Source: an uncultured Staphylococcaceae bacterium (GTDB taxonomy: Bacteria > Bacillota_I > Bacilli_A > ML615J-28 > CAG-313). Taken from it: 55,214 bases of DNA. Below are positions 13,892 through 55,144 of this stretch, piece by piece. The stretch is from contig CAYLLO010000004.1 in assembly GCA_964384805.1 (NCBI GenBank), positions 1-55,214 of the forward strand. The letters run 5' to 3'. The translations under genes were made by a program, and so were the position numbers. Every line of letters begins with the position of its first letter. Positions within the stretch are counted from its first letter, which is position 1. The notes beneath the pieces were generated by a model. That model had not been told where the DNA came from. It made no database searches and worked only from the letters and a program-made list of their open reading frames with translations.

Positions 13892-16800
13892 TTATTCCTC
13901 TTCTTCCTTAATTAAATTTTCTCCAAATAAATCAACAGCCTTATTATAAGATGGACTCTTTTCATCAACAAACGATTTTTTAATAATCTTTAATTCAGGA
14001 TTATTAATTGGAGTAAGTTTTGGAAATCTAGTTCCCATTTGATATTGTCCTCGATATTCATTTCGTTTTTCTTGCCAAATATTTTCTGGTAAAGCAACAA
14101 AATCATATTCTCTACCAAAAGTAATCTTTAATATTTGTTTAGCCTCAAAATGAATCTTATCTCCCATAATGTGGTTACATAATGCCGCATTAGGATAAGT
14201 AATAATGATACAATTATTACCATTTACAACAGGCACTCCATCCATCAAAAATCTTGCTACTGGTGACAAAGCTGTCCCAACACGATCCCCTAATCGTTGC
14301 CAATTGTTAATAATTATCTTACGCTCTTCACGTGATATTTCACTACGAGAATCATGCATAACCATTTCGATTTTTTCAATCGCATATGGATTATCTCTAG
14401 GAACATTTTGACTTATAGTCTCTAAAGTTCTAGGGGCAGTCGTTTCTAATACTGTTGCTCGTTTATAAGTTGATTGAACAGACTCTTTTTTAACAGGCTC
14501 TTCTTCTTTGATAACTAAATTATCTAATTTAAAAGTAGTATTCGGTGTTTCTACTTCCTCTTTTTTAAGAGCAATTTCTTCAACTATTGGCATTATAGTT
14601 GGTTCATTTAGAACTTCTTCATATATATCTTTTGATTCTTCAGGTTGTGAATCAACATTTTCTAACGGCGATTCGTTTTCCACAGGTAGTTCTTTTATTT
14701 CTTCTATGATTTCGTTTTCCATTTTATTTAATGCTGGTTCAACAACTGGTTCTACATGCACTTGTTCAATAATTTTTTCTTCTTTTGGTTCTAAAACTGG
14801 AACAACCACAGGTTGTGCAATCTCTAAAGTTTGCTCTTTGAAATTTCTAAATTCTTTAATTAATTCTTTTATTTCAGCAATTAACCCTTTAATTTCTTTA
14901 TCTTTTGTAGAAGCAACCATTGCTTCTCTACCACTAACAGTGATTAAGAAAGTTTTTATATTTTTATTAGCATCTTTCCCTAAAGATGGTTCTTGTATAT
15001 ATTTACCTTCTTGTTTATCAGTAATAAAGAGTTTTATGTCATCTTTCATATTGTAAAGATTTAATACAACATAATTTAAAGTATCTAATGGAATCTTTTC
15101 ATTAATTGCAACTGCTCTTAAGCCTGATTCTAATTGATTAATATTACAAGATAGTTCATAATGAAGTTCTTCTTCAACTTCTCTTTCAAAATCATCAAGG
15201 GATAAAATATCACTTTTTTGCTCATCTGAAGAAGGTAAAACATCAACTTTTTCTACTATTGGTTCTACTTTTCTTTCTTCAACTATTGGCTCTACTGGTT
15301 CTTTTACCTCTTCTAATACTGGTTCTACAGGTGTTTCCTCTAAAGGTTTATTAAAGAAAACCGGGTTAGTAAAGAAATCATCAATTGGTCTTGTCATTTC
15401 TTCAGGTATTTTTGTTTCTTCTAAAGTATCATTTTCTATATCTTGTTGATTTGTAGTTGAAGTTTCTTCTAATGTTTCTATTGTGACATCTTCGCTTAAT
15501 TGGTTTTCAAATTGTTCAAGTGGCGATTGCTCGGCTACTTCTTGAACCTCTAAATTTTTAAACATATCTTCTTGAACATAGTTTTCAACTATCGGTTCTA
15601 CTAGTTCTTTCTCTTCTTCAATTTTTCTTTGAACTTCCACGATATCTAAAACTTTTTGTTCATAAGGATTTTCGCGTTTTTGAATAGATGCTTCGACTTT
15701 AGAATCTGTTAAAACTAATTCGTTTAAAGACGCCTCGATATTACTATAAGTATGTTGCAAAGCTTCTAATTGTGTCTTTAACTCTTCATATTGGCTTTTT
15801 AATAATTCTAACTCTTCTTTATCATTAGATTGATTAAAATCAAATAATGTTAATGCCTCTGGTTCTTTATGTTCTTTCGTTTTTAAACTTGTTGATAATT
15901 CCTCAATTTGATTAAAAGCCAATTGAATAGATGCTTCTATTGTTTCTAATTCTTCTTTCATAAAAGCAGAATCATTACTTTCAATATTATTATTACCTTC
16001 TAATTGTTTTTTAATCATTTCAATTTCTTCATTTATTGCGTCTAAATTAATATTTGGTACTATTTCTTTTTCTTCTAGTTTTATTAAACGTTCTTCAAAA
16101 GAACTATAATCAATGTTAGAATTATTCTTAATAACCGTATTTTCTAACAAAGTTAATTTTTCTTTTGTTTCGTTTTGGAATTCGTTTAAATTTAATTTAA
16201 CTAGTTCACTTTTTATTTTATTTAAATGAACTTCCAAAGTTACAAGGCGTTCTTCAATATCATTTGGCAAAACTTCCCCTAGTAATGCTCCTTGATTACT
16301 TTGAGTATTATAATCATCCCTTGAAGCACTAGCCATTTTCATAATACCAACTTCAAGAAAAATCTTTTGGGATAAACTAAATTTTATTTTATTTTGTACA
16401 TCACTTAAGACTTCAATATAATAGAAGATTTTCTTTTTGTTAAGATTATTACATAACATCTTAAATGCCATATCATTATAAATCAATTTATCATTTGCTT
16501 CTCCATCTGTACTTTGATACAATAAAATATCCCGACACAATTGAAGTAATCCTTGAACTAATCTACTTACTTCTTTCCCTAAAGATAATAAATCGTTAGT
16601 TAATTCAACAGCTTTAGCAGAATTATTCTCATTAATAACCTGCATTAACTCTATTAATTTTTGATTTGATATTCTACCTGTTACATTATTAACATCTTCT
16701 AAAGTTATCTCTTTAGTACTATATGAATTAACTTGGTCTAAAATACCTATCGCATCACGCATTCCCCCATCAGATGCTTCAGCTACTAAATTTAGTGCTT

Positions 16801-17401
16801 CTTCTTCAATCGCAATTTTTTCTTTTTCAGCAATGCTTGTTAAATTGCTCTTAATTTCTTTAACTGTTAATGGTTTAAAATCAAATCGTTGGCAACGAGA
16901 TAGGATTGTTGCTGGAATCTTGTGCGGTTCGGTTGTTGCCATGATAAACATAACATGTGCAGGTGGTTCTTCCAACGTTTTTAAAAGCGCATTAAATGCT
17001 GAAATACTAAGCATATGAACTTCATCGATAATATATACTTTGTATTTTAAAACACTTGGTAAAAAATTAACCTTTTCTAAAACATTTCTTATTTCATCAA
17101 CACCATTATTACTGGCTGCATCAAATTCAACAATATCAGGAGTTTCATTGTTATTAATCATTCTACATGATGAACATTTATTGCATGGTTCACCAGCATG
17201 CAAGTCTTCACAATTGATGGCTTTAGCTAAAATACGAGCAATGGTTGTTTTTCCTATTCCTCTTGGTCCGCTGAATATATATGCATGTGATGTTTTATTA
17301 TTAGTAAGAGCATTTTTCAAGGTCTTAATAATATGTTCTTGTCCAATTACAGAACTAAAACTATTTGGACGATAACTTCGATACAACGCTTTATAAGCCA
17401 T
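13892..17401 (-). CDS. dnaX: DNA polymerase III subunit gamma/tau, unusually long (1169 aa)
   Basis: The N-terminal ~365 aa form the canonical clamp-loader AAA+ module (GPRGIGKTTIARILAK, Zn module CNKCSSC, DEVHMLS, SRCQRFDF). The last ~200 aa resemble the Firmicute DnaX C-terminal domain. About 550 aa of coiled-coil, E/K/P-rich sequence (VEPIVE motifs) lies between. Confidence 0.9.
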   Translation of the reverse strand: MAYKALYRSYRPNSFSSVIGQEHIIKTLKNALTNNKTSHAYIFSGPRGIGKTTIARILAKAINCEDLHAGEPCNKCSSCRMINNNETPDIVEFDAASNNGVDEIRNVLEKVNFLPSVLKYKVYIIDEVHMLSISAFNALLKTLEEPPAHVMFIMATTEPHKIPATILSRCQRFDFKPLTVKEIKSNLTSIAEKEKIAIEEEALNLVAEASDGGMRDAIGILDQVNSYSTKEITLEDVNNVTGRISNQKLIELMQVINENNSAKAVELTNDLLSLGKEVSRLVQGLLQLCRDILLYQSTDGEANDKLIYNDMAFKMLCNNLNKKKIFYYIEVLSDVQNKIKFSLSQKIFLEVGIMKMASASRDDYNTQSNQGALLGEVLPNDIEERLVTLEVHLNKIKSELVKLNLNEFQNETKEKLTLLENTVIKNNSNIDYSSFEERLIKLEEKEIVPNINLDAINEEIEMIKKQLEGNNNIESNDSAFMKEELETIEASIQLAFNQIEELSTSLKTKEHKEPEALTLFDFNQSNDKEELELLKSQYEELKTQLEALQHTYSNIEASLNELVLTDSKVEASIQKRENPYEQKVLDIVEVQRKIEEEKELVEPIVENYVQEDMFKNLEVQEVAEQSPLEQFENQLSEDVTIETLEETSTTNQQDIENDTLEETKIPEEMTRPIDDFFTNPVFFNKPLEETPVEPVLEEVKEPVEPIVEERKVEPIVEKVDVLPSSDEQKSDILSLDDFEREVEEELHYELSCNINQLESGLRAVAINEKIPLDTLNYVVLNLYNMKDDIKLFITDKQEGKYIQEPSLGKDANKNIKTFLITVSGREAMVASTKDKEIKGLIAEIKELIKEFRNFKEQTLEIAQPVVVPVLEPKEEKIIEQVHVEPVVEPALNKMENEIIEEIKELPVENESPLENVDSQPEESKDIYEEVLNEPTIMPIVEEIALKKEEVETPNTTFKLDNLVIKEEEPVKKESVQSTYKRATVLETTAPRTLETISQNVPRDNPYAIEKIEMVMHDSRSEISREERKIIINNWQRLGDRVGTALSPVARFLMDGVPVVNGNNCIIITYPNAALCNHIMGDKIHFEAKQILKITFGREYDFVALPENIWQEKRNEYRGQYQMGTRFPKLTPINNPELKIIKKSFVDEKSPSYNKAVDLFGENLIKEEEE

Positions 17402-25745: not shown

Positions 25746-27113
25746 TTATTTCCCTAAACAAAATTTTGAAAATAATTCATCTAACAAACTACCATCTTTA
25801 ACATCACCTATGATATCTCCTAAACTATGCCAAGCTTCTTGTAAATATATATCTATAAAATCAATATATATTCCTTCATCTATTGATTTTACCGCTTGTT
25901 TTAAAGCCTTAATTGCCTCTTTTAATTTATTTATTTGTCGGGCGTTACTTACATATGTTAAATCATCAATATTTAGATTATTATCTAACACTTGTTCAAT
26001 AATTGTTTTTTCTAATTTGGTTATATCTTCAGGATTTTTAGTAGATATATATATATGTTTATCAAAATAATTAGGATTAGCTTTCATTTCTAAATCTTGT
26101 TTGTTAATAATAACAATATGATTTTGATTTTTGATTAAATCATAGAGTCGGAAATCTTCTTCATTTAAGTCTTTACTTCCATCTATCAAAAATAAAACCA
26201 ATTCAGCTTTTTCTAACCATTCTTTAGAACGATTAACACCTATTTGTTCCACTATGTCCTCAGTGTCTCTGATACCTGCTGTATCAATCAAATTTAATGT
26301 TATGTTTTCTAAATTTAATTTACCTTCAATTACATCTCTTGTTGTTCCTGGTATTGCGGTGACAATAGCCTTATCCTCTCTTAATAACGCATTTAAAAGA
26401 CTACTTTTACCAACATTGGGTTGTCCAATTATAACCGTGTCTATACCATTTTTAATTTTTTCTGCAGTATTAGATTTACCTAGTATCTCTTCTAAATCTT
26501 TAATTAATTTATTAATTTTAGGTAAAACTTTGCTATTGGTCATTTCTTCAACATCATCATATTCAGGATAATCAATATTTACGGCAATAACCGCTATTAT
26601 ATCTAATAATTCTTGTTGTTTCAAAGAAATAAGTTTAGCAATATCACCTCTTAACCCTTTATTAGCAAGTTTTAAAGCATTTTTACTCTCTGCCTCTATG
26701 ACATCCATTACCGATTCAGCTTTGGTTAAATCTATTCTACCATTCAAAAAGGCTCTTTTAGTAAATTCTCCTGGTTCTGCAAGTCTTGCTCCTTCTGCTA
26801 ATAAAAGTTTTAAAATTTGATTAGTTACAAAACTTCCACCATGACAATTAATTTCAACAACATCTTCAGCAGTATATGTTTTAGGTGCTTTAAAGATACT
26901 AACTAACACTTCATCTAACACTTCATCTTTATCATATATATGTCCATAGTGAATGGTATGACTTTTTGCTTTTTCTAAATTCTTACCTTTAAATATTTTA
27001 TTCACTAAAGAAATAGCTTCTTCTCCACTTAACCGAATTATTGATATGGCACCTTGTCCCATCGCGGTTGAAATACCGACAATTGTATCTTCAAATAAGT
27101 TTATTTTTTCCAT
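25746..27113 (-). CDS. mnmE: tRNA modification GTPase MnmE
   Basis: G1 motif GQPNVGKSSLLNAL, DTAGIR, NKQD and the characteristic C-terminal CLGK tetrapeptide. Confidence 0.95.
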   Translation of the reverse strand: MEKINLFEDTIVGISTAMGQGAISIIRLSGEEAISLVNKIFKGKNLEKAKSHTIHYGHIYDKDEVLDEVLVSIFKAPKTYTAEDVVEINCHGGSFVTNQILKLLLAEGARLAEPGEFTKRAFLNGRIDLTKAESVMDVIEAESKNALKLANKGLRGDIAKLISLKQQELLDIIAVIAVNIDYPEYDDVEEMTNSKVLPKINKLIKDLEEILGKSNTAEKIKNGIDTVIIGQPNVGKSSLLNALLREDKAIVTAIPGTTRDVIEGKLNLENITLNLIDTAGIRDTEDIVEQIGVNRSKEWLEKAELVLFLIDGSKDLNEEDFRLYDLIKNQNHIVIINKQDLEMKANPNYFDKHIYISTKNPEDITKLEKTIIEQVLDNNLNIDDLTYVSNARQINKLKEAIKALKQAVKSIDEGIYIDFIDIYLQEAWHSLGDIIGDVKDGSLLDELFSKFCLGK

Positions 27114-27833: not shown

Positions 27834-29300
27834 TTAGTATTTTTGTTTTAATTTTTCTAATTTTTTAGTACTTAATTTATTATTAATATATGTTTGTACC
27901 ATTGAATATATATTACCTATACACCAATAAACTCCTAAACCAGCGGCACTTTGCCATACAAATATCCCCATCATAAAAATCATAAAATACATCATATATT
28001 TCATAGTCTTAGCTTGATCATTTTGAGCTACAGCTTGACGACGATATTCAGGAATATTAGCTTGACGTTCTTCATTTGCTTTCTTTTGACGTCGATTTGC
28101 TTGAACTTGGCTCAATATTTGAGTTCCAACAACAATAATTAATATTACAATTATTCCCCAAAATTGAACAGTTCCAAATTCACCACGTGTTTCAAATAAA
28201 TCTACTCCAAATAGTTTGGTATTTAAGTCGCTTACCCAGTCATTAGTACCAGGAATAGTTCCATCTGTGTATTGAATTCTTGAAACTGCACGATAAACTC
28301 CCATAAAGATTGGGAATTGTAGTAGAGGCATTAAACAGCCCCCCATACCAACTTTATATTTTTTATAAAGTTGCATTTGTTCCATTTGTTTCATTCTTTG
28401 ACTATCTGGGTCAGGTCGGTTAGCATATTTCTCTTCTAATTTTTGAATTTCTGGTTGCATTAAACTCATTTTCAAACTCATATCGTTTGTTTTAGCATAA
28501 ATTGGCCAACCTAATGTTCGAACTAAAATTGTTGTTATCAAAAGACCTATAATGTAATATCCACCAAACAAGTGTGATAAAGCTTGCATTATCCAACCAA
28601 TTGGAAAAACAATCAAATTATTAAATAAATGAGACCAAAATTCACTACCAGTATAGAAATGCAATGGTGCTTGTTGAGTTTCATATTTTCCGATTAAAAT
28701 AGTATAATTTTTAACAAGTTGATATACATCTTCTGATTCTATTTCTTTATTTTCTATTTTACCTGCTAAATTGGCAGTTTTGGCATTTAAAAGTAATTCA
28801 TTATATTCTTTAAAAGTCTCATCACATAAATATTCTTGGTGAAATTCCCGTTTTTCTTTTGATTTTTGAGTTGTAAAATTATATATTAACTCAATACTTT
28901 TTTCTTTTGTTGTATTTAGTTGAGATTCCATTGCGGAAGCAACTGCTTTATCAACTTCTATAACTTCTGATCTTTGGTCTTCTGGTACTGCTTGATACAA
29001 AGTCGTAAAAGCATTTTCTAGTAATTCTTCTATTTTTGAATAATCAAAATTAGTATTTACTTCACTTTTAACTGCTACTAATTTACTGTTAATATTGGTT
29101 CTTTCTTCATCAGTTAAAGTTAAGTTATCAAAGTTTAGGTATGTATCAACTTCATAAAGGACTGCACTTTTTTGAGTTGTCTTTAAAGTCTCTTCCACTA
29201 CATCATAAGTACTTGCGTCTCCCGCACTACATCCAGATAAAACAAAACCAAAAAACATACATACAATTAATACTAATCCATATTTTATTTTTTTATTCAT
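27834..29300 (-). CDS. yidC: YidC/Oxa1 family membrane insertase with a ~200-aa N-terminal lipoprotein extension
   Basis: Lipobox LSGC. The C-terminal ~260 aa form the conserved insertase core (GWPIYAKTNDMSLKMSLMQPEIQKLEEKY...CLMPLLQFPIFMGVY). It overlaps rnpA by 8 nt. Confidence 0.9.
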   Translation of the reverse strand: MNKKIKYGLVLIVCMFFGFVLSGCSAGDASTYDVVEETLKTTQKSAVLYEVDTYLNFDNLTLTDEERTNINSKLVAVKSEVNTNFDYSKIEELLENAFTTLYQAVPEDQRSEVIEVDKAVASAMESQLNTTKEKSIELIYNFTTQKSKEKREFHQEYLCDETFKEYNELLLNAKTANLAGKIENKEIESEDVYQLVKNYTILIGKYETQQAPLHFYTGSEFWSHLFNNLIVFPIGWIMQALSHLFGGYYIIGLLITTILVRTLGWPIYAKTNDMSLKMSLMQPEIQKLEEKYANRPDPDSQRMKQMEQMQLYKKYKVGMGGCLMPLLQFPIFMGVYRAVSRIQYTDGTIPGTNDWVSDLNTKLFGVDLFETRGEFGTVQFWGIIVILIIVVGTQILSQVQANRRQKKANEERQANIPEYRRQAVAQNDQAKTMKYMMYFMIFMMGIFVWQSAAGLGVYWCIGNIYSMVQTYINNKLSTKKLEKLKQKY

Positions 29301-29637
29301 TCTTTTGATTTTCCTTTCGTAATAGTAATTTTAATGTTTTTTCTAAACTATCTTTCTTTTCTAAGAAAGATAGTTTTTTTGAGAATTCTTTAACTACTAT
29401 GACTAACGAATATGATGGCATTTGAGCAATAAACGGTCTTACAATTTCCCTTACTACTCTTTTAGCATAATTTCGTTCTACAGAATTACCATATTTTTTC
29501 CCGACAGAAATCGCAATTTTTACTCCATCATCTCGTTTCATATAATATATAGTGTAGTGTTTACCTGCAATTCTTTGTTTATTTAAAACAACTTTTGCTA
29601 TTTCATGGCTTTTCTTTAATCTAAATTTTTTCTTCAC
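29293..29637 (-). CDS. rnpA: Ribonuclease P protein component
   Basis: A 114-aa basic protein directly downstream of rpmH, with typical sequence (KKSHEIAKV...AISVGKKYGNSVERNYAKRVVRE). Confidence 0.9.
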   Translation of the reverse strand: MKKKFRLKKSHEIAKVVLNKQRIAGKHYTIYYMKRDDGVKIAISVGKKYGNSVERNYAKRVVREIVRPFIAQMPSYSLVIVVKEFSKKLSFLEKKDSLEKTLKLLLRKENQKNE

Positions 29638-29953: not shown

Positions 29954-30985
29954 TTAATATTTTGGTAAATCATTTACCGAAATAGAAACTTTTGAGGTTT
30001 CTTTAGTTCCATCAACTTTATTTAATTCTGTATATACATATAAATCTTCTATTTCAAATTCACCACTATATGCGGTAGCAATTTGAGGAATAGTGTATAA
30101 GTAAGGTAAAGCCCCATGATATTGCGCAAATTCAATATAATTAGAGAAATACTCTTCTTCATCACTTTCGGTATTCTTCATTCCTAAAAATAACGCAACT
30201 GAAGTATTTTCTATTACTCTGTTATCTCCCTCATCCAAAGGATTATATTTTAAATTTAATCTATATGTGTCATTTTTAGATGCTAATTCATTTAATTCTG
30301 TTCTTACCTTTACCTCTAAAGCTTCACTTTCTGTTTTTATATCAACATTAGAAGTTGTTTCTTTAATAGTTGTAACTTCAAAATCTTTAAAATCTATTTC
30401 ATCTTCATTTATAATATTACATTGATATGTAAAAGATTTTTTCGTATTATTGGCTTTTTCATCTCTTACTTCGTATACAACCTTTACATATACTTTATCT
30501 GGTTCTCCATCATTTTTAGTATACTCTTTAGTTGTTGAATTATAAACCATCGTTTTAGATGTCGTGCTGTATGAAGAAAAAATACTTCTATCCGATGAGC
30601 TTCCAGAAATATTTGCGGGATTTTCAATTCCTGTTAGTATTGATGCTGTCTTTTCTTCATATTTCATTGTTCCATCTTTTTTCAATATAGCTGTATATAT
30701 TGTTACATTTCGATATATTGCTTCTTGATTTTTCAAATGTAGATAAACTTGCATATCCCAATACTGAGTCTCTTTTTCGGTTTCAGAAGATGAGGCATTC
30801 CGTCGTTCTTTTATTCTTACAGCAATGTCAATATTTTCATCTCCTGGAATTGTTCCGTAATTTTTGTATAAAGATTCATCCTTTTTTAGATTCACTGCTA
30901 ATGATATTACTAAAGATAACGCTAATACATATAATATTAAAAGAATTATCTTTCCTGTGTTATTTAATTTTTCTATAAATTTCAT
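29954..30985 (-). CDS. Hypothetical membrane-anchored protein inserted between rpmH and dnaA
   Basis: I chose the start at track residue M42 (MKFIEKL..., 30983..30985) because AGAGGTG lies 6 nt upstream and the longer ORF would run into the DnaA-box cluster. It has one N-terminal TM helix, then a ~300-aa S/T/E/K-rich domain. I recognise no family. Confidence 0.65.
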   Translation of the reverse strand: MKFIEKLNNTGKIILLILYVLALSLVISLAVNLKKDESLYKNYGTIPGDENIDIAVRIKERRNASSSETEKETQYWDMQVYLHLKNQEAIYRNVTIYTAILKKDGTMKYEEKTASILTGIENPANISGSSSDRSIFSSYSTTSKTMVYNSTTKEYTKNDGEPDKVYVKVVYEVRDEKANNTKKSFTYQCNIINEDEIDFKDFEVTTIKETTSNVDIKTESEALEVKVRTELNELASKNDTYRLNLKYNPLDEGDNRVIENTSVALFLGMKNTESDEEEYFSNYIEFAQYHGALPYLYTIPQIATAYSGEFEIEDLYVYTELNKVDGTKETSKVSISVNDLPKY

Positions 30986-31053
30986 ATTCACACCTCTGTT
31001 AAGTATTTTATCACATTTTACTTTATTTTGGCAAGAAAATGTAAAATTATTAG

Positions 31054-31147
31054 TTATCAACATTAATGTTGATAAAAATGTTAATAATTTTTGGAAAAAC
31101 TTTTTCAACGTTGATATGTGGAAAACATCATTTTTATATGTGGAAAA
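31054..31147. promoter_or_regulatory. oriC DnaA-box cluster upstream of dnaA
   Basis: TTATCAACA (31054..31062) and inverted TGTTGATAA (31067..31075) form a perfect 22-bp palindrome. Two TGTGGAAAA (= TTTTCCACA) boxes lie at 31117..31125 and 31139..31147. Each box is 1 mismatch from TTATCCACA. Confidence 0.75.
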
Positions 31148-31219: not shown

Positions 31220-32605
31220 ATGGAACACGCAAATATGCTTTGGACTAAAACTAAAGATTTATTAGCTACTTCTAATAAAATTGGTCCTACAGAATTTAAA
31301 GAAATAATCCAACCTATTGAAAAAATTCACAAAATTGCAAATAACTATATTTATCTTATTGTACAACACACTTTAACAAAATTTAGAATTGATAAGTTTT
31401 ATTTAGCCATAATGAATGAATGTTTATCAACTATAACTGATGAAAATCTAAAATTTCAAACTATTACTCAAGAAGAAGCTGAAAAAGAAAACAAAGAAAA
31501 TAAACAAAAATCGCTTATTTCTATTAATGAAAATGAAATTAAAGGAAATTCAAGAACCTTAAGACCTGAATATACTTTTACAAATTTTGTGGCTGGACCT
31601 TCAAATCGTTTTGCTTACATTACTGCTTTAAATGTTGCTGAAGCTCCTCATGTTTCAACAATGAACCCTTTATATATATTCGGTGATGTAGGTTTAGGGA
31701 AAACTCACTTAATGATGGCTGTTGGATGGTATATTTTATCTAATAATATAAATGCCAATGTTATTTATACTTCTGCGCAACAGTTCGCAGACGAATATTT
31801 TGCGGCGACTCGTAAGAATTCGAATTATTCCATTGAACAGTTTTATAATTATTATCGCAGTGCTGATGTTTTGTTAGTAGATGATATTCAATTTCTTGCC
31901 AACAAAAATGGTACACAAGAAGAATTTTTTAAATTATTTGATTATTTATATGAAAAAAATAAACAAATTATTATTACATCTGATAGACGAGCAGATGAGT
32001 TAGAAAACATCATGAAACGTCTTACTTCACGTTTTAGTTGGGGGATTTCTGTTGATATAAAAAAGCCTGATTTTGAATTACGTTACCAAATTATTAAGAA
32101 AAAACTTAATTTTGCGTTAACTGACCCATCAGTTGTATCAGAAGAAGCCTTAAACTATATTGCTAATAATTTTGATAACAATGTCCGAGAATTAGAAGGT
32201 GCTTTACGTCGTTTTATTAATTATTGTGTGGCATTTGGGATTAATTATAGTGAAGAAAATGCTAAAAATGCGTTAAATGATATCATTCCTAAAGATAAAA
32301 CTAATATTTCGGCAGATAAGATATCAAGTATTAATGAAGTTAAACGGGCAGTTGCCAACTATTATGGTATTCCTGTCGAAGATTTAGCCTCTACAACTAG
32401 AAAAAAAGAAATTGTCATTCCTCGACAAGTAGCTATTCATATCGTAAGAACAAAATATGATATACCGCTTAAAAAAATTGGAGAACACTTTGGAAATCGT
32501 GATCATGCGACAATTTTACATTCATTAGATAAAATATCAGAAATGATGAAACAAGATCCAGATTTAACCCAAGATGTGGATAATATTATTAAAAAATTAC
32601 CTTAA
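31220..32605 (+). CDS. dnaA: Chromosomal replication initiator protein DnaA
   Basis: AAA+ Walker A GDVGLGKTHL, Walker B LLVDDIQF and the C-terminal DNA-binding domain (RDHATILHSLDKI). RBS GAGGTG upstream. Confidence 0.97.
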   Translation: MEHANMLWTKTKDLLATSNKIGPTEFKEIIQPIEKIHKIANNYIYLIVQHTLTKFRIDKFYLAIMNECLSTITDENLKFQTITQEEAEKENKENKQKSLISINENEIKGNSRTLRPEYTFTNFVAGPSNRFAYITALNVAEAPHVSTMNPLYIFGDVGLGKTHLMMAVGWYILSNNINANVIYTSAQQFADEYFAATRKNSNYSIEQFYNYYRSADVLLVDDIQFLANKNGTQEEFFKLFDYLYEKNKQIIITSDRRADELENIMKRLTSRFSWGISVDIKKPDFELRYQIIKKKLNFALTDPSVVSEEALNYIANNFDNNVRELEGALRRFINYCVAFGINYSEENAKNALNDIIPKDKTNISADKISSINEVKRAVANYYGIPVEDLASTTRKKEIVIPRQVAIHIVRTKYDIPLKKIGEHFGNRDHATILHSLDKISEMMKQDPDLTQDVDNIIKKLP

Positions 32606-32651: not shown

Positions 32652-32690
32652 TTTTCCACATTTCAACATTACTAATAATAATAAATGATA
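32652..32690 (+). promoter_or_regulatory. oriC element downstream of dnaA: DnaA box plus AT-rich, trio-like stretch (candidate DUE)
   Basis: TTTTCCACA at 32652..32660 is followed 12 nt later by TAATAATAATAA (32673..32684) and an A-run, within the 114-bp dnaA-dnaN spacer. Confidence 0.5.
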
Positions 32691-32719: not shown

Positions 32720-33844
32720 ATGAAATTTACAATAGCAAGAGATCTTTTATTAGATGCTTTAAATAATGTTTCTCGAGGATTATCATCTAAAACACCTATG
32801 CCTGTTTTGACAGGAATTAAAATTGAAGTCGCTAATAAAAATATAACTTTAATAACGACTAATAGAGAAATATCTGTCAAAGTTGTTTTAGATCAAGTTG
32901 AAGATATCGATATCTTAGAAGATGGTGTTTGTGTAGTTCCAGGTAAATATTTTATCGATATTATTAAAAAATTAGAAGGTAAGACAGTAGAATTTACATT
33001 ATTTGACGCTAATACAATAAAAATAATATCTGAAAGAACAACTTTTACATTAATTTCATTAGACTATACCAATTATCCTAATATTAATTTTGATGTTAAT
33101 GGGACACCTATTGTAATAGGGAGTTTAAATTTAAAAAATTACATTAGACAAACTGCTTTTGCAGCAGGGATAAATGAATCTAGAATGGTTTTAACAGGAG
33201 TATACTTTGAAACAAATGATAACAAAATAGAAATGGTAGCTACCGATAGTTATCGATTAGCTAAAAAAATTAGTGAAAATGATATAAATTATCCTAAAAC
33301 TAAAATTATTATTCCTAGTAAAGCTATAGAAGAATTATCTAAAATTTTAGAAGATGAAAATGAAAACGTAAAAATGTATTGTGCTAATAATAGAGCATTA
33401 TTTGAATACAAAAACATTTCCTTTATTACTAGATTAATCGAAGGTACATTTCCTGATACCTCTAGTATTATTCCTAAAGAACATATTGTAGAAATTACTT
33501 TTAATAAAAACACTTTATTATCAACAGTTGAGCGGGCATCATTATTTACTACTCAAAATAATGGTAGTATAATCAAAATGTTAACGAATGAAGATGGAAG
33601 TGTTCAAATAGCTTCAATTTCTACTGAGATAGGTAAGGTTGTAGATGAAATAATCCCTATAAAAATGGATAAAATATGCCGTTTTCAAATAGCTTTTAGT
33701 GCTAAATATTTTTTAGAAGCAATAAAGGCTTTTGAAGGTAATGAAATAGTTATAAAATTCACAGGAGAATTAAAACCATTCTTATTAACCTCTCCTGAAG
33801 ATGATAACTTTATTCAAGTGATTCTTCCAGTAAGATATTTCTAA
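32720..33844 (+). CDS. dnaN: DNA polymerase III subunit beta (sliding clamp)
   Basis: A 374-aa protein directly after dnaA with typical N-terminus MKFTIARDLLLDALNNVSRGLSSKTPMPVLTGIKI. Confidence 0.95.
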   Translation: MKFTIARDLLLDALNNVSRGLSSKTPMPVLTGIKIEVANKNITLITTNREISVKVVLDQVEDIDILEDGVCVVPGKYFIDIIKKLEGKTVEFTLFDANTIKIISERTTFTLISLDYTNYPNINFDVNGTPIVIGSLNLKNYIRQTAFAAGINESRMVLTGVYFETNDNKIEMVATDSYRLAKKISENDINYPKTKIIIPSKAIEELSKILEDENENVKMYCANNRALFEYKNISFITRLIEGTFPDTSSIIPKEHIVEITFNKNTLLSTVERASLFTTQNNGSIIKMLTNEDGSVQIASISTEIGKVVDEIIPIKMDKICRFQIAFSAKYFLEAIKAFEGNEIVIKFTGELKPFLLTSPEDDNFIQVILPVRYF

Positions 33845-33864
33845 AAAATTTATAGAAGTAAAAT

Positions 33865-33890
33865 AAAAAACCTCATTATGAGGTTTTTTT
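33865..33890. terminator. Bidirectional terminator shared by dnaN and the convergent ParA-like gene
   Basis: AAAAAACCTCA-TTA-TGAGGTTTTTTT: a GC-containing stem flanked by A- and T-runs. Confidence 0.75.
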
Positions 33891-33908
33891 GTTATTTTAT
33901 GCTATTTT

Positions 33909-34697
33909 TTAATCTAAATTTAGATGATCAAAGTCTGTTCTCCACTCTTTTTCTACCTCATCTCGATTTTTTTGGTGAAATTTGGAAGCCATTTTATAAT
34001 CATCAAAAATACTTACCCCTTCTGCTTGTAAGTTTTTAATTACTGAACGATCACAAATAGGATCGGTTATTTTCGCATTAGGAGTATAAAGTTCTGCTTG
34101 TTTTTTGAGTTCTTTTAAACAATTTTTTGGAGCTAGTTTTATAGGGTGGAAACCAGTGGGTACAATGTACTTTATTTTATCCAAATTAATGTCAGTATCA
34201 ACAAAATATTGAATTGTGTTAATATAACCATCTAAACCTAACGTATCAAGTCCTACTACAAGAAGTATAGAGTCAGAGATATCCAGCAAGATTTCGCTTA
34301 AACGACTACTTGAAGGTGGGAAATCAATAAAAATATAGTCGAAAAATTTGGTAAATCCTTTTATTGTATCAATTAGTTTACGTTCTTCTTGTCTTTTTAC
34401 AGTTAAAGTGAATGAAAGTCTATCTGTATTTAAGGTTTTAATGATATACATATTTATTCTTGCCTCGCATACAATATCTTCAGGGTTACATTGGCCAGTT
34501 AAAAGGTGTTCTAAGTACATATTATTCTGATCAGTTACAAAATCTCCACAGCCAAATAATTTAAAAATACTATTTTGGTCATCTGCACTAATAATTAAGA
34601 CTTTTTTTCCTTTAGTAGCGACATAGTGTGCTAAATAACCTAAATAAGTAGTTTTACCAACACCACCTTTTTTACAATAAGTAGAAATAATAGGCAT
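33909..34697 (-). CDS. ParA/Soj-family partition ATPase, small plasmid-like type
   Basis: Deviant Walker A CKKGGVGKTT at residues 8-17 and Walker B-like IFIDFPPS. At 262 aa it has no N-terminal HTH extension. Confidence 0.8.
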   Translation of the reverse strand: MPIISTYCKKGGVGKTTYLGYLAHYVATKGKKVLIISADDQNSIFKLFGCGDFVTDQNNMYLEHLLTGQCNPEDIVCEARINMYIIKTLNTDRLSFTLTVKRQEERKLIDTIKGFTKFFDYIFIDFPPSSSRLSEILLDISDSILLVVGLDTLGLDGYINTIQYFVDTDINLDKIKYIVPTGFHPIKLAPKNCLKELKKQAELYTPNAKITDPICDRSVIKNLQAEGVSIFDDYKMASKFHQKNRDEVEKEWRTDFDHLNLD

Positions 34698-34699
34698 AA

Positions 34700-35020
34700 T
34701 TATAAGTCTCCTTCTCTACGTAATTTTTCTCTACAAGCATCTTCTAAGTATTGAGCAAATAAAATTCCTCTTGTTGCACACGCAATTTTAACTTTTCTTC
34801 TAATATCAGGATCCATTACTGATGTAAATTTTACTTTATCAATTTTCTTAGGTTGTGATTGTGGCTGTCTTTTAACAACCCTTTCTTGTTTTGGTGCAAC
34901 ATAAACCGGTTCTTCTTCGTATTTTTCTTCAACATAAACCGGTTTAGTTACTACTTTTTCTTCTTTCGGTTCTTCATTTCTTACAATTGGTGTTGCAAAA
35001 GGGTTAACTCTTTTTTGCAT
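34700..35020 (-). CDS. Ribbon-helix-helix DNA-binding protein (omega/ParG-like candidate centromere binder)
   Basis: It lies 2 nt upstream of the ParA gene with RBS AAGGAGGTG. A K/E/P-rich N-terminal tail precedes a C-terminal ~45 aa with a strand-helix-helix pattern (KVKFTSVMDPDIRRKVKIACATRGILFAQYLEDACREKL). Confidence 0.6.
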   Translation of the reverse strand: MQKRVNPFATPIVRNEEPKEEKVVTKPVYVEEKYEEEPVYVAPKQERVVKRQPQSQPKKIDKVKFTSVMDPDIRRKVKIACATRGILFAQYLEDACREKLRREGDL

Positions 35021-35050
35021 ATAACACGCACCTCCTTAATATACAATAAG

Positions 35051-35079
35051 ATTATACCACAACCAAAATTTAAAATCAA
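35051..35079 (-). promoter_or_regulatory. Strong sigma-A-type promoter of the RHH-ParA operon
   Basis: On the minus strand: -35 TTGATT (35074..35079), 17-nt spacer, extended -10 TGGTATAAT (35051..35059). The spacer contains AAAATTTAA, related to the repeat core further upstream. Confidence 0.65.
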
Positions 35080-35488
35080 GCATTTTACAATAAATATTTT
35101 TTTATGGTTTTATGTAAATATAGTTTTTTTAAAAGTTAGCATTATATTTACCCAAAACCCAAAAAAACGATATTTTTGCAAAAATGAGTTATTAAAAACA
35201 TTTAGTTCTTTAAAAATAGCCTTAAAATCTTTTAAATTTTGAATTTTTGTTTTTTAAATGAAATCTAATTCGAATAGCTCGGCAAAAATTTAAAAAAACA
35301 CGCATTTTTAAAGTTTTTAGAAAAACGTAAAAAAACACATTTAAATTACAAAAAATAAGTGATTAAGTAAATATTGTTATATGTAAAAACATAAATATTA
35401 TTTCGATTAATCTAACAATTTGTATTTTGATACAATTTAAAGTAACACCAAACATTTACCCGTTTAAGTTTGATTAAAACAGAATTAT

Positions 35489-35686
35489 TTTTAAATTAAA
35501 AGTAAAAATTAATTAATTAAAGTTTGATAAAGTTTTAATTTAAAAATAAAGTGGCTAAAAAATATTTTTAAATTAAAAACAATTGCTTCTGTATCTTTGA
35601 GTTAAATATTTTTAATTTAAAAGTAAACTGTATAATAATTATTTTAAATTAAAAGTAAAAAAATAAAAAATATTTTTAATTTAAAA
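35489..35686. repeat. Array of six 13-bp cores TTTTAAATTAAAA / TTTTAATTTAAAA in strictly alternating orientation
   Basis: Core start positions are 35489 (A), 35533 (B = reverse complement), 35566 (A), 35610 (B), 35642 (A) and 35674 (B). Spacings are 44, 33, 44, 32 and 32 bp. Flanks are partly shared (ATATTTTTAA..., ...AAAAGTAAA). Confidence 0.8.
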
Positions 35687-35965
35687 ATAATTGTTTTTTA
35701 AAAAAGTTTTAAAATAAAACATTTTTATAAAAAGGTGCTTTTAATATAAAAGTTTTTATAAAAATATTTAAAACATTAAAACAAGATATAAATATTTAAA
35801 TTTATATTTTTTTAAATAATATAATAAAAGAATAAATACATATAATGCGTAAAGAAATAAAAATTTATATATTTATATAAGTAATTAAATAAAAGAATAT
35901 AATAGAATAAATAAGTAAATATGTATATAAATAAAAGAGTTAATATTTTTATATTATATTATTTA

Positions 35966-36007
35966 TATACTTATAAAAATAATTATTTCTATATTTTTAT
36001 AAGTATA
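35966..36007. repeat. Perfect 15-bp inverted repeat in the AT-rich spacer
   Basis: TATACTTATAAAAAT (35966..35980) and ATTTTTATAAGTATA (35993..36007) are separated by 12 nt. Confidence 0.8.
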
Positions 36008-36302
36008 AATAAAATACTTTTATTTTAAAAGTAAATAAAAAAGTTGCAAAAAATAAAAAATAGGCTCTTTATATAAAAGAATTTAAAATTTAAAAATATA
36101 AAAAATAGTATTTTTTAGCAATTATATATATAATATAAGGAATATACATAAATATGTAAAAATGTTGTTTAATTTTTATTAAAAACCGTAAAATGTCGTT
36201 TTTTTATTAGGAAAAAATTGCAAAACAATAAAAAGTTAAAAAATGAATTTTTTTATTATTTTTAAGGCTGTTTTTTGGTGGTTAAAAAAATTAATTAATT
36301 GG

Positions 36303-36331
36303 TGGTAAAAATCTTGGTTTTATGGTATAAT
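36303..36331 (+). promoter_or_regulatory. Putative promoter of yaaA-recF-gyrB-gyrA
   Basis: Extended -10 TGGTATAAT (36323..36331) and a weak -35 TGGTAA (36303..36308). Two direct TTGGTGGT repeats at 36275..36282 and 36299..36306 overlap the -35. Confidence 0.5.
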
Positions 36332-36360
36332 AAACATAAGTAATAATAAGGTGATTAATT

Positions 36361-36570
36361 ATGATAGTTAAAATCAATACAGAGTACATAAAATTAAATC
36401 AATTTTTAAAATTAGCAGGAGTTATAGTAAATGGCGGAGAAGCAAAAGAAATGATTCAAAATAAACTCATTATGGTTAATGGACAACCCGAATTTGCTCG
36501 AGGTAAGAAACTTTTTTCTGGTGATCGGGTTAAAATTGAGGGTATTGAATACATTGTGGAGCGCGAATAA
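36361..36570 (+). CDS. yaaA: S4 domain-containing RNA-binding protein YaaA
   Basis: A 69-aa protein immediately upstream of recF as in Bacillus, with S4-like sequence (IKLNQFLKLAGVIVNGGEAKEMIQNKLIMVNGQPE.ARGKKL..GD). Confidence 0.85.
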   Translation: MIVKINTEYIKLNQFLKLAGVIVNGGEAKEMIQNKLIMVNGQPEFARGKKLFSGDRVKIEGIEYIVERE

Positions 36571-42339: not shown

Positions 42340-42565
42340 GTAAAATCTGTGATAAGGAATAGTAACTAAGGTGTTTAGATTAGAGAACGAGTGGTTGGTG
42401 AAAACTCATGTGTAAACTAATTAGTGAATCTACCTTTGAGATGACTTTGAAAAAAGCTCCGGATGTAGGCCGTAATCTATTAAAAGCGAGAGGTAACTCT
42501 AATAAGGGTGGTACCGCGGACAAAAAATGTTCGTCCCTGTTGTTTACAGCAGGGATTTTTATATT
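42340..42565 (+). promoter_or_regulatory. T-box riboswitch leader (Ser specifier) controlling serS
   Basis: Stem I closes AAGG...CCTT with specifier TCT (42429..42431) followed by A. The T-box motif AATAAGGGTGGTACCGCGG is at 42501..42519. The terminator is TCCCTGTTG-TTTA-CAGCAGGGA plus TTTTT (42534..42560). Confidence 0.9.
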
Positions 42566-44421: not shown

Positions 44422-44955
44422 TTGTCTAAATTAACAATTAAAAAAATGATTCTTTTAGCGGTATTGATAGCTTTAAGTTGTGTTCTTTCATATTTTGATA
44501 GTTATATATGCTCTTTTATATCTTTTGGGTTGATACGATATAAGTTGGGGTTAGCTAATGTTGTGATAATGGTAATATTGTATAATTATGATTTTAAAAG
44601 GGCAATTTTCGCAGTTGTGATAAAATCATTAATTGTTGGATTATTTTTTGGTGCCACAGGATTTATAACTTTTATAATAAGTTTATTTGGTTCCCTACTT
44701 AGTGTAATAGGAATGTATGTATTTAAGAGAATGCTTGTAAAATCAAATTTTACGCCTTTTATAGGGCTAATAGGAGGTTTTTTACATCCAGTAGGACAAA
44801 TTATAGGGGCAATATTAATCTATGGATTTAAAGAGTTTTTAGCCTCAAGTTTAATTACTGCCCCAATTATGTTAATTCTTGGAATAATAACGGGAATAAT
44901 CGTTGGTTTTACCGCACAACAAATAAATAAATATTTAAAAGATAAAATTAGCTAA
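44422..44955 (+). CDS. Gx transporter family / heptaprenyl-diphosphate-synthase-component-I-like membrane protein
   Basis: TTG start 7 nt after AAAGGAGAG. It is 177 aa with about 5 TM helices and resembles the small Hpre_diP_synt_I-type membrane proteins. The family call is tentative. Confidence 0.5.
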   Translation: MSKLTIKKMILLAVLIALSCVLSYFDSYICSFISFGLIRYKLGLANVVIMVILYNYDFKRAIFAVVIKSLIVGLFFGATGFITFIISLFGSLLSVIGMYVFKRMLVKSNFTPFIGLIGGFLHPVGQIIGAILIYGFKEFLASSLITAPIMLILGIITGIIVGFTAQQINKYLKDKIS

Positions 44956-45310
44956 AAGGATATTCGTATTCAATTTCTTCATCAAAGGCAACATATGAAA
45001 GATAAATAGTTAATAGTAGATAATATACATTGGTTTGAGTATCGCGTAAAACAATATGATCTTTGCCAGCCTCTAAGAGTTCGCCTTTATATATTTTAGA
45101 ACCCCACTGACTACCTTCAAAGTTCATATACACAGTAGCAATTTTCCCTCTATTCAAACGCAGTATATTTTCAACATATGATTGTTCCGCGAATGTATAG
45201 GGATTTGGATATGGTTGCCCACTTGGCGGCATTTGATTCATAAATTGAGGAGGATACATTCCTCCCATACATGGTGAAAATCCATAAGGTTGTTGATAAT
45301 TAATTGTCAT
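44948..45310 (-). CDS. gerQ: Spore coat protein GerQ
   Basis: A Q/P-rich N-terminus, then the conserved core SYVENILRLNRGKIATVYMNFEGSQWGSKIYKGELLEAGKDHIVLRD. It lies directly downstream of cwlJ as in Bacillus. Confidence 0.8.
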   Translation of the reverse strand: MTINYQQPYGFSPCMGGMYPPQFMNQMPPSGQPYPNPYTFAEQSYVENILRLNRGKIATVYMNFEGSQWGSKIYKGELLEAGKDHIVLRDTQTNVYYLLLTIYLSYVAFDEEIEYEYPFS

Positions 45311-45385: not shown

Positions 45386-45805
45386 CTATTTATAGCAATT
45401 TTCCCCTGCTACTGGGGCATAAAAACAATGAGATTTAAATTTGCCACTATTCCATTGTCCCCACCATTGAGCACTACAAGCTCCATCGGTGTTATAAAAC
45501 CATAAAGCATTTGTGGCCGGACTATGACGTTCACCTTTTAAACTTCTTTTAGCAAGCTTAAGATCTATATCTCTAGGGGCTTGATAAAAATAAGAATGAA
45601 GGGTTGCCTCAAATCCACCAGGACGTTGGAAAACCATTTTATAAATGGTATTAATATCTTGAAAATCTAAACAATTAGCCAAAACACGGTTTACGCCAAC
45701 GTTGCCGACCATCAACATGCCAAGTTCACCTTCTGATTCGGCTTCAGCACGCATAAGGCGCGCTAAGAGTTTAAGTTCTTGATCATTATAAGCTACGACC
45801 GACAT
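45386..45805 (-). CDS. cwlJ: Spore cortex-lytic cell wall hydrolase CwlJ/SleB family
   Basis: Hydrolase_2-type sequence LLARLMRAEAESEGELGMLMVGNVGVNRV...QRPGGFEA...ALWFYN, 139 aa (CwlJ size). Confidence 0.85.
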   Translation of the reverse strand: MSVVAYNDQELKLLARLMRAEAESEGELGMLMVGNVGVNRVLANCLDFQDINTIYKMVFQRPGGFEATLHSYFYQAPRDIDLKLAKRSLKGERHSPATNALWFYNTDGACSAQWWGQWNSGKFKSHCFYAPVAGENCYK

Positions 45806-54616: not shown

Positions 54617-55144
54617 ATGAAAGCAACTGGAGTAGTCAGAAGAATTGATGATCTTGGCAGAATTGTAATCCCTAAAGAATTAAGAAGAACTATGCGTATT
54701 AGAGAAGGAGATTCACTTGAAATATTTATCGATGGCGAAAAAATAATGTTGAAAAAATATTCTCCTGTTCAAAATGTTAACGATTTTGTTATTGAATTTG
54801 TGGAAAGTATATATAGTTCTTATAAAAAAGATATGCTTATTACCGATAATGAAGTTATAATAGCGGGAGCAGGAAACTATAAAAAAGAGTTAATAGGCAA
54901 AAAAATATCTCCGAGACTTGAAGAAAAATTAACCAAAAGAGCAACGCAATATTTAGAAAAAGGTGAATACTTAGAATTAACAGTTGATTATGATATTAAA
55001 AAACCATCAGTTATTAAACCTATTAATGTATATGGCGATATCATAGGATGTGTGATTATATCAACAGATAATGAAATCACGGATGTAGAAAAATCACTTG
55101 CGGAATTTAGTGGAGTTTTTATGAGTAGATATTTAGAGGGATAA
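54617..55144 (+). CDS. spoVT: Stage V sporulation protein T (AbrB-family regulator)
   Basis: MKATGVVRRIDDLGRIVIPKELRRTMRIREGDSLEIF... is near-identical in pattern to Bacillus SpoVT. It is 175 aa with a GAF-like C-terminal half. Confidence 0.9.
   Translation: MKATGVVRRIDDLGRIVIPKELRRTMRIREGDSLEIFIDGEKIMLKKYSPVQNVNDFVIEFVESIYSSYKKDMLITDNEVIIAGAGNYKKELIGKKISPRLEEKLTKRATQYLEKGEYLELTVDYDIKKPSVIKPINVYGDIIGCVIISTDNEITDVEKSLAEFSGVFMSRYLEG

Follow-up and report, generated by a model that had tools for sequence, protein, structure and literature searches.

Type Ib plasmid partition systems such as TP228 ParF-ParG-parH and pSM19035 delta-omega-parS pair a small ParA ATPase that has no N-terminal DNA-binding domain with a ribbon-helix-helix (RHH) partner encoded in the same operon. 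Upstream of their own operons, RHH partition proteins occupy arrays in which short repeats stand in direct and inverted orientation, and their flexible N-terminus activates ParA (PMC9499535, PMC5016525, PMC8682754). Accounts of bacterial chromosome segregation generally center on ParA with the helix-turn-helix/CTPase ParB and parS; RHH centromere binders have been ascribed to plasmids and, among chromosomes, to those of archaea only (PMC7022226, PMC8682754). In a 2020 review of chromosomal ParB, they appear among the DNA-binding proteins of plasmid partition, and the review adds that Enterobacteriaceae, Pasteurellaceae and Mycoplasmataceae lack par loci (PMC7022226). Here, we analyzed a 55,214-nt stretch of DNA (contig CAYLLO010000004.1 of assembly GCA_964384805.1; hereafter the window) from an uncultured Staphylococcaceae bacterium (GTDB CAG-313), in which an operon encoding a ParA-superfamily ATPase and a small RHH protein, together with an AT-rich, repeat-bearing tract, lies between dnaN and yaaA. 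This position is fixed across a deep lineage of uncultured Bacilli, and we consider the cassette to be probably a vertically inherited chromosomal DNA-partition module of type-Ib-like design beside the replication origin, oriC. In our literature search, neither a ParA-RHH system at oriC of a bacterial chromosome nor the present cassette was found to have been described, and the same held for a ParA near dnaN in Mollicutes, Acholeplasma or RF39.

Like the type Ib systems, the locus encodes a small ParA lacking an N-terminal DNA-binding domain and an RHH partner in one operon. Upstream lie short repeats in both orientations with a fixed, short period, which are candidates for a centromere and operator. 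The small dimeric RHH partner of type Ib carries a flexible, ATPase-activating N-terminal tail (PMC9499535, PMC5016525), for which a conserved N-terminal sequence motif is the candidate here. The type-Ib-like architecture proposed in a preliminary description of this DNA (ParA, RHH protein and repeats) was supported. Unlike type Ib plasmid cassettes, the present one is chromosomal in all loci, fixed beside oriC and vertically inherited. It also differs from TP228 and pSM19035 in having the RHH gene first, an 8-bp repeat unit (TACATAnn) and a tract of 1-3 kb as opposed to about 100 bp, and it possesses a second, helically phased class of repeats. Firmicute plasmid modules of the RepB/RepC type (pAD1, pCF10 PrgP/PrgO, pXO2/pBMB165) likewise join a ParA-like ATPase to a small adjacent protein and are flanked by 8-bp direct and reverse repeats, although there the ATPase gene comes first (PMC1626470), whereas our locus has no rep gene and is chromosomal.

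Two chromosomal systems offer further comparisons. The archaeal SegAB system of Sulfolobus also consists of a chromosomal ParA-type ATPase and an RHH DNA-binding protein with sites just upstream of the operon; the unstructured N-terminus of SegB stimulates SegA, and a higher-order nucleoprotein complex forms (PMC8682754). By contrast with our locus, SegAB belongs to another domain of life, its genes run segA then segB, and SegB possesses additional helices and recognizes imperfect palindromes of 23 bp. SegA ranked only 24th among the structural matches of the window ParA and no sequence-level relation was detected, so SegAB is better viewed as a probable analogue than as a family member. With Soj-Spo0J-parS, the cassette shares an origin-proximal, chromosomal and vertically inherited location, a ParA fold that is nearest to Soj, and a presumed role in origin segregation and/or control of DnaA (PMC7022226). 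It departs from that system in encoding an RHH partner in place of a helix-turn-helix/CTPase ParB, in having AT-rich 8-bp boxes and 13-mers as putative cis sites, in lacking a GERRxRA box and a 16-bp parS in the sequence examined, and in lying between dnaN and yaaA, not beyond jag/mnmG/rsmG.

The interval between the end of dnaN (32720-33844, plus strand) and the start of yaaA (36361-36570, plus; S4_2 domain, E = 1.5e-24) measures 2516 bp. On the minus strand it holds the 262-aa ParA-superfamily ATPase open reading frame (ORF; 33909-34697) and, 2 nt upstream of it in the same operon, the 106-aa RHH ORF (34700-35020), whose product is a candidate centromere-binding protein. A promoter, TTGATT-17-TGgTATAAT, lies at 35079-35051 (minus) and is kept in relatives in the subclade alignment. 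A strong ribosome-binding site (AAGGAGG) precedes both genes, that of the RHH gene standing a few nucleotides 5' of the ATG at 35020. The convergent dnaN and parA share a bidirectional intrinsic terminator, AAAAAACCTCATTATGAGGTTTTTT (33865-33889); a terminator scan of both strands gave 3 sites against 0.3 expected. Beyond the operon, the non-coding tract spans 1340 bp at 14.6% GC, with a local minimum of 8%; no other extended stretch of the window falls below 20% GC. The extended -10 element TGgTATAAT of the yaaA-recF promoter forms its right edge (36323-36331, plus) and is invariant in the alignment. Everything that the preliminary description had placed here, namely an interval of about 2.5 kb, a minus-strand operon with a strong TTGATT-17 promoter, and a 106-aa ORF followed 2 nt later by a 262-aa ParA with KGGVGKT, was recovered where it had been reported.

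The ParA protein appears functional in sequence terms, with intact Walker motifs and a Soj-like predicted fold. The deviant Walker A motif KKGGVGKT (residues 9-16; the protein has no N-terminal DNA-binding domain) is invariant in a 10-sequence alignment, as are Walker A' SADDQN (D39/D40) and Walker B FIDFPPS (D125); in the profile alignment, the latter two stand opposite IDFDPQ and IIDSPPA of Helicobacter pylori Soj (HpSoj). Profile searches for ParA/CbiA-type ATPases placed the protein above the cutoffs of both Pfam AAA_31 (E = 1.5e-24; 87 bits, cutoff 27) and CbiA (32.7 bits, cutoff 25.4). No curated NCBIfam model passed its cutoff; PrgP, the sole such model aligning over about the full length, reached 37 bits against a cutoff of 400, so the protein is not a member. 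The nearest solved sequences were HpSoj (E = 4.5e-10), then McdA and MinD, and neither ParF nor delta was among the sequence matches at E < 1e-3. A structure predicted with AlphaFold2 (AF2; predicted local distance difference test score, 88) gave B. subtilis Soj, McdA and HpSoj as the best Foldseek matches (template modeling score ~0.74, E ~1e-13 to 1e-14), with delta 17th and ParF 23rd. The protein shows no specific relation in sequence to ParF or delta. Because no curated model was passed, the predicted fold is closer to Soj and McdA, and ParF and delta are missing from the matches, we regard this ParA as a distinct clade. The label "plasmid-type", which had been given to it earlier, is not demonstrated; the best plasmid match is only 27% identical.

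The small protein belongs to a narrow family: of 1.84 billion representative proteins searched, those matching at E <= 1e-3 formed only 76 clusters. Family members have an N-terminal (F)KKRxNP[FL] motif, a variable acidic/proline linker and a conserved C-terminal domain of about 45 residues. The N-terminal motif is found in 75 of the 81 non-redundant proteins and reads KRVNPF (residues 3-8) in the window; the C-terminal consensus is R-x-KYTATMD..LRKRVKIA.A..G..FS.FIEEA..EKLEREG. In the window protein, the RHH domain covers approximately residues 62-104, with the strand KFTSVM at the position of the near-invariant family beta-strand KYTATM. The linker varies, which makes protein length range from 59 to 153 aa and suggests that it evolves by slippage; in the window, a 33-bp tandem duplication in the linker coding region (34897-34963) repeats EEPVYV.

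That the C-terminus fits an RHH fold, as first noted from the sequence, had weak support from the window protein by itself (Pfam RHH_10, E = 2e-3, below cutoff) and solid support from the family, as a 38-member profile matched the RHH protein SvtR (PDB 2kel) at E = 9.3e-10. Individual members matched Pfam 56B_RHH (9 members, best 6e-8), RHH_10 (6), RHH_3 (5), RHH_1 and Omega_Repress, the last of these in two proteins and so recalling omega of pSM19035. The AF2 monomer of the small protein consists of an extended segment followed by helices at 71-84 and 88-103. A Foldseek search with it produced no significant match (ParD, E = 7), and this search was uninformative because disorder extends over the N-terminal 60 residues and the strand requires a dimer. 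Taken together, the small protein is built like a type-Ib centromere binder, for which DNA binding is predicted.

To place the cassette among relatives, we used protein similarity. The ParA has more than 2000 database relatives, and the members of its close family (54-98% identity) are encoded in assemblies of uncultured "Bacilli bacterium". Three relatives at 76%, 62% and 55% ParA identity (loci L001, L004 and L007, respectively) showed the same order: yaaA, a gap of 1.3-1.9 kb, a small ORF, ParA, and convergent dnaN-dnaA. A scan of one genome per species, which used ParA peptide patterns only, found a ParA relative in 119 genomes; 80 of these loci were fetched, and their gene order was read by tblastn with the window proteins. 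All 80 had gyrB-recF-yaaA <- gap, RHH -> ParA -> <- dnaN <- dnaA as far as the contigs reach, and so did 12 metagenome loci and the loci from five further look-ups. The insertion, for which a survey of related genomes had been suggested, is therefore not strain-specific. Even a divergent small-protein relative from the exhaustive profile search lies between recF and dnaN, beside a 294-aa ParA. Since retrieval was by protein similarity and not by position, the fixed position is a result and not an artifact of selection. Depositors labeled the 80 loci as Bacilli, "uncultured Mollicutes", Acholeplasmatales/Acholeplasmataceae, Staphylococcus sp. CAG:324 or Coprobacillus sp. CAG:698, and the samples came from gut, rumen and digester; the nearest locus was from a roe-deer caecum metagenome-assembled genome (MAG; ParA 94%, GyrB 96%).

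We then compared divergence among 53 non-redundant loci by pairwise identity (1378 pairs). ParA identity rose and fell with that of DnaN (Spearman r = 0.78), DnaA (0.71) and GyrB (0.81), a correlation as tight as that among the housekeeping proteins themselves (DnaN with GyrB, 0.79; DnaA with GyrB, 0.67). Mean pairwise identity was higher for ParA (63%) than for DnaA (53%) or DnaN (52%). The ratio of nonsynonymous to synonymous substitution (dN/dS) between the window and its nearest relatives was 0.04-0.10 for ParA and 0.10 for the small protein, which points to strong purifying selection on the cassette. A tblastn search of plasmids gave, as the best match over most of ParA, one that was only 27% identical (92% coverage), and no ParA match was found among 50,697 phage records or in IMG/VR. 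The cassette therefore looks like a vertically inherited one and not a recent insertion. The earlier suggestion that it had been "domesticated next to oriC" is strengthened by its fixed location, vertical descent and purifying selection.

We next turned to the gap between the RHH gene and yaaA in 59 non-redundant loci, 28 of them in subclade A (ParA >= 62% identical to that of the window) and 31 in subclade B (<62%). The gap is 0.7-3.3 kb long with 11-40% GC. No ORF in it is conserved among loci, those present having low-complexity translations, and a search against Rfam gave nothing at the gathering threshold or at E <= 1; on these grounds, we rejected hidden genes or RNAs. Over all loci, the most over-represented words were TACATAAATA and its relatives, with 223 occurrences against 3.8 expected, in 48 of the 59 loci. 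Their logo, TAYRTAWA, has an 8-bp period. The corresponding TACATA/TATGTA boxes occurred 197 times in subclade A (42 expected) and 752 times in subclade B (103 expected). Box-to-box distances peaked at 8, 16, 24, 32 and 40 bp (259, 110, 54, 65 and 46 counts in subclade B, respectively), and the four orientation pairs were used about equally. The first 100 bp 5' of the RHH gene held 28 boxes in subclade A and 91 in subclade B, often in runs such as TATGTAtaTATGTAtaTATGTA that overlap the promoter region. The most divergent locus had TATACATAAAACCATAC, in the same 8-bp register and with the CATA core. In the distant subclade, boxes also sit on long tandem units, in L007 (6280-7000; about eight copies of a ~63-bp unit, each with TATACATAAATACATAAAT) and in similar tracts of L053, L059 and L071; these units recall sopC-type centromere arrays and enlarge the gap to 1.8-3.3 kb.

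In the window itself, five two-box dyads start at 35103, 35380, 35912, 36145 and 36153, against 0.46 expected, and none of 1000 shuffles reached five; dyad density was 3.7/kb in the tract and 0.24/kb elsewhere. The first of them, with its boxes 8 bp apart (35103-35116), lies in TACATAAAACCATAAAAAAATA (35091-35124, gene strand), a promoter-proximal operator candidate that is invariant in a 5-way alignment. The second is TATGTAAAAACATA (35380-35393), and the third, TAAGTAAATATGTA (35912-35925), falls inside a zone of 8-bp periodicity (35813-35935) made of TAAATAAA-like units, for which Tandem Repeats Finder reported period 8 and 15 copies. The remaining two lie in a strongly conserved block, TATATATAATATAAGGAATATACATAAATATGTAAAAATGTT (36123-36166), with three boxes in 8-bp register and, inside it, the perfect palindrome TACATAAATATGTA (36145-36158). 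Within the same block, TATATATAATATAAGGAATATACATAAATATGTA, lies AGGAATATAC, a word present in 21 loci at exactly one copy each, and a minus-strand promoter-like match overlaps the block. Two further conserved stretches emerged from the alignments: GCCTTAAAA ... AAAnnTAATTCG at 35219-35275 in an 8-way alignment, and AAAATGTCG...TAGGAAAAAATTGCAAAAC at 36190-36226. The GCCTTAAAA ... TAATTCG block stands between the operon promoter and the 13-mer array in 8 out of 8 aligned species, and the blocks at 36123-36166 and 36190-36226 lie ~100-200 bp upstream of the yaaA promoter.

The preliminary description had drawn attention to an array of six short repeats upstream of the operon. Indeed, six exact copies of TTTTAAWTTAAAA start at 35489, 35533, 35566, 35610, 35642 and 35674, all within 35489-35686, and the rest of the 55 kb contains none. 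This is far above chance, with expectations of 0.28 (whole-window shuffles) and 0.13 (dinucleotide shuffles of the 14.6%-GC tract), and none of 2000 local tract shuffles gave even three copies. Two further copies with one mismatch (35707 and 35739) extend the array to eight (35489-35751, plus), at spacings of 44, 33, 44, 32, 32, 33 and 32 bp. Each unit comprises the 13-bp palindromic core TTTTAAWTTAAAA and a directional right flank, RTAAA. An isolated one-mismatch 13-mer, TTTTATTTTAAAA, lies at 36018-36030 (plus), a position that is kept in relatives. Across loci, spacings cluster at about 21, 32, 43, 54, 65 and 74 bp; as these are multiples of ~10.7 bp, the units would lie on one face of the helix. 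In a five-species alignment, 61.5% of the 13-mer core columns were invariant compared with 11.8% of those in spacers, which marks the 13-mers as functional sites as judged from conservation. The 13-mers are conserved in position in the closer subclade, 400-730 bp from the RHH gene. Subclade A had 64 13-mers against 2.8 expected and subclade B had 2 against 1.4, and on these counts the phased array is a second putative cis element specific to the closer subclade.

Which of the two repeat classes would the RHH protein bind? The six repeats had been proposed as its target, but they are probably not the main one; the TACATA/TATGTA boxes are universal, overlap the promoter and co-occur with KYTATM. 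We consider it probable that the boxes in 8-bp register, rather than the 13-mers, are the target. The boxes are favored because they are as universal in the family as the near-invariant beta-strand, and because they lie at the promoter of the operon itself, the place at which centromere binders of type Ib exert autoregulation. Omega heptads and the ParG sites in parH, moreover, follow the same grammar of a short fixed period with mixed orientations (PMC9499535, PMC5016525), and repeats of 8 bp flank the ParA-like stability genes of Firmicute plasmids (PMC1626470). The 13-mer gained no support from covariation as the site of RHH binding: in the L004 clade it takes the form TTTGAAWTTCAAA with the beta-strand unchanged, and in the window clade the strand has a T-to-V change with the 13-mer unchanged. 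A geometry common to the 13-mer and the box dyad was looked for and none was found.

The window carries a Bacillus-like origin region, with rnpA (29293-29637), yidC, jag and mnmE on the minus strand and dnaA (31220-32605), dnaN, yaaA, recF, gyrB and gyrA on the plus strand. Cumulative GC skew turns at ~31 kb. DnaA-box-like sites occur at 31054-31147, 32575 and 32652, and the segment 35021-36360 is free of them. Over the loci, DnaA boxes (<=1 mismatch) had a density of 13.8/kb in the spacer between dnaA and dnaN and of 8.2/kb on the upstream side of dnaA, compared with 0.55/kb in the tract. As the boxes flank dnaA and are scarce in the tract, the tract appears to lie beside oriC and not to be part of it; we rejected it as a DnaA-box part of oriC (0.55 boxes/kb as opposed to 8-14/kb around dnaA). 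The module is 1.2-3.7 kb from oriC. Ahead of dnaN, the box at 32652 is followed by TAC TAA TAA TAA TAA and an A-rich run, which together look like a DnaA-trio/unwinding element of the kind in the B. subtilis origin.

The absence of soj/spo0J from its usual place, also remarked on earlier, was confirmed: no window ORF of >=90 aa has a ParB domain, and mnmE is followed by asnS. The expected mnmG-rsmG-noc-soj-spo0J block is absent from the 31 kb left of dnaA, where mnmE (25746-27113, minus) is next to asnS. Six-frame translations of the window and of 965 kb of related origin loci contained no GERRxRA motif. The 16-bp parS, TGTTNCACGTGAAACA, had no match with <=2 mismatches in the window, and the scan of the 965 kb of related origin regions gave only two non-palindromic 2-mismatch matches, which we took as chance. 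Replacement of ParABS is, on this sequence survey, likely but unproven.

The explanation that we favor, a partition module beside oriC, would work as follows. RHH dimers would bind TACATA/TATGTA boxes (core CATA) in strict 8-bp register; binding at boxes adjoining the -35 element would autoregulate the operon, and binding at the many boxes across the tract would assemble a large partition complex. The flexible RHH N-terminus with its KKRxNP[FL] motif would contact nucleoid-bound ParA-ATP dimers and stimulate their ATPase, and newly replicated origin regions would be pulled apart by a ParA gradient (diffusion-ratchet) mechanism. Such a scheme follows the logic of ParG/omega and of archaeal SegB (PMC8682754). 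In this way, the module would do the job of Soj-Spo0J-parS, a system not seen at its usual place. The phased TTTTAAWTTAAAA array may be bound on one helix face by the same complex or by another factor. A more far-reaching version, to which we give slightly less than even chances, is that the near-universal ParB-parS centromere has been replaced throughout this deep lineage of low-GC, spore-forming Bacilli from gut and digesters by an RHH-based, type-Ib-like ParA system in the dnaA-dnaN-recF cluster, with boxes and 13-mers forming a composite, kilobase-scale centromere.

Several points weigh against a partition module. All of the organisms are uncultured and represented by MAGs, so the reasoning runs from sequence throughout. 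The operon is transcribed head-on to forks from the dnaA-proximal origin, and its RHH-first gene order is unlike that of TP228 parFG and segAB. ParA proteins beside oriC can regulate DnaA instead of moving DNA. The absence of ParB and parS holds for the 55-kb window and about 1 Mb of origin-proximal flanks only. The repeat class bound by the RHH protein is a prediction, and the 13-mer arrays stand without an assigned binder. Lastly, the window clade has V for T at one predicted DNA-contact position, with neither motif obviously changed.

The alternative that survives best, and that we nevertheless find unlikely, is control of replication initiation. ParA would act on DnaA as B. subtilis Soj does, with the RHH-DNA complex toggling it between monomer and dimer and thereby tuning initiation or entry into sporulation. 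The module does adjoin dnaA-dnaN and a DnaA-box-flanked origin, its top structural match is B. subtilis Soj, the window encodes the sporulation proteins GerQ, SleB-like and SpoVT, and control of DnaA by Soj/Spo0J is established (PMC7022226). Yet the ParA is only ~22% identical to Soj, and a kilobase-scale array of sites exceeds what a switch needs. Both roles coexist in B. subtilis, so initiation control and partition do not exclude each other.

Less probable still is that the tract is itself a replication element, with ParA and RHH as accessories: an extended unwinding region or an iteron-type control region, in which the phased 19-bp directional repeats would serve as iterons for an unidentified initiator or a handcuffing protein. 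Like iterons, the 13-mer units have a direction and recur at multiples of ~10.7 bp, and GC falls to 8-15% in a tract that is conserved beside oriC. However, DnaA boxes were counted as absent from the tract across the 59 loci (at the density given above), a DnaA box, TAA-trinucleotide run and AT stretch presumably serving for unwinding already lie between dnaA and dnaN, the locus has no Rep-like gene, and the 13-mer array is missing from the distant half of the family, where the tract is still there.

Nor do we think it at all likely that the RHH protein is a local transcription factor, acting on its own operon and possibly on yaaA-recF, while ParA positions non-DNA cargo or the division machinery like McdA, MipZ or FlhG. 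In its favor, there are boxes overlapping both the operon promoter and a conserved block situated 170 bp upstream of the promoter of yaaA, and McdA is among the top structural matches. Autoregulation, however, needs a few sites as opposed to 20-38 boxes in 1-3 kb, the combination of RHH with a basic N-terminal motif is the hallmark of ParA-activating centromere binders, and no cargo gene is linked. Finally, the view that the cassette is the remnant of a recently integrated plasmid or mobile element, raised in the preliminary description and in keeping with its resemblance to plasmid type-Ib cassettes and with an operon orientation that opposes its neighbors, was rejected as extremely improbable, given constant synteny with an identical insertion point in all 80 loci (~80 species with DnaA down to 45% identity to that of the window), divergence in step with DnaA, DnaN and GyrB, the purifying selection seen in dN/dS, the lack of an integrase, rep gene or att repeats, and the failure to find a plasmid, phage or viral relative.

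Other features of the window were recorded alongside. Between rpmH/rnpA and dnaA lies a minus-strand gene without a Pfam or NCBIfam match (29954-31108; 384 aa as listed), whose product has an N-terminal hydrophobic segment and is probably membrane-anchored. Counterparts occur in L001 (11707-12786, 359 aa), L004 (11750-12673, 307 aa) and L007 (11856-12938, 360 aa), making it a further lineage-specific fixture of the origin region. Homologues of spore-associated proteins (GerQ spore-coat protein, a SleB-like cell-wall hydrolase and SpoVT) are encoded at 44948-45310 (minus), 45386-45805 (minus) and 54617-55144 (plus), respectively; because they are present, the organism looks like a spore-former, although several related MAGs were deposited as Mollicutes or Acholeplasmatales. 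The dnaX gene (13892-17401, minus) encodes 1169 aa, roughly double what is usual in Firmicutes, and its product continues at the C-terminus in a long extension past the recognized tau/gamma domains. A 1014-aa aBig_2 (atrophied-Ig) protein (3606-6650, minus) has 99-bp tandem coding repeats at 4092/4191/4290 and 4863/4962, and these repeats explain several DnaA-box-like matches (TTTTCCACA) outside the origin. The T-box leader (42340-42541, plus; 116 bits) 5' of serS is ordinary.

If ParB-parS has indeed been replaced, these bacteria would be the first whose chromosome is known to rely on an RHH centromere binder for segregation, and their system a bacterial counterpart of archaeal SegAB. With at least 119 species carrying the cassette, a vertically inherited ParA-RHH module beside oriC would mean that the RHH solution is able to run a bacterial chromosome. 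It would also provide a natural case of a partition complex without ParB spreading or CTP clamps, and an unusually large, dissectable centromere with two repeat grammars. The compact three-part cassette is testable in heterologous hosts and can serve as an origin-region marker for these uncultured genomes.

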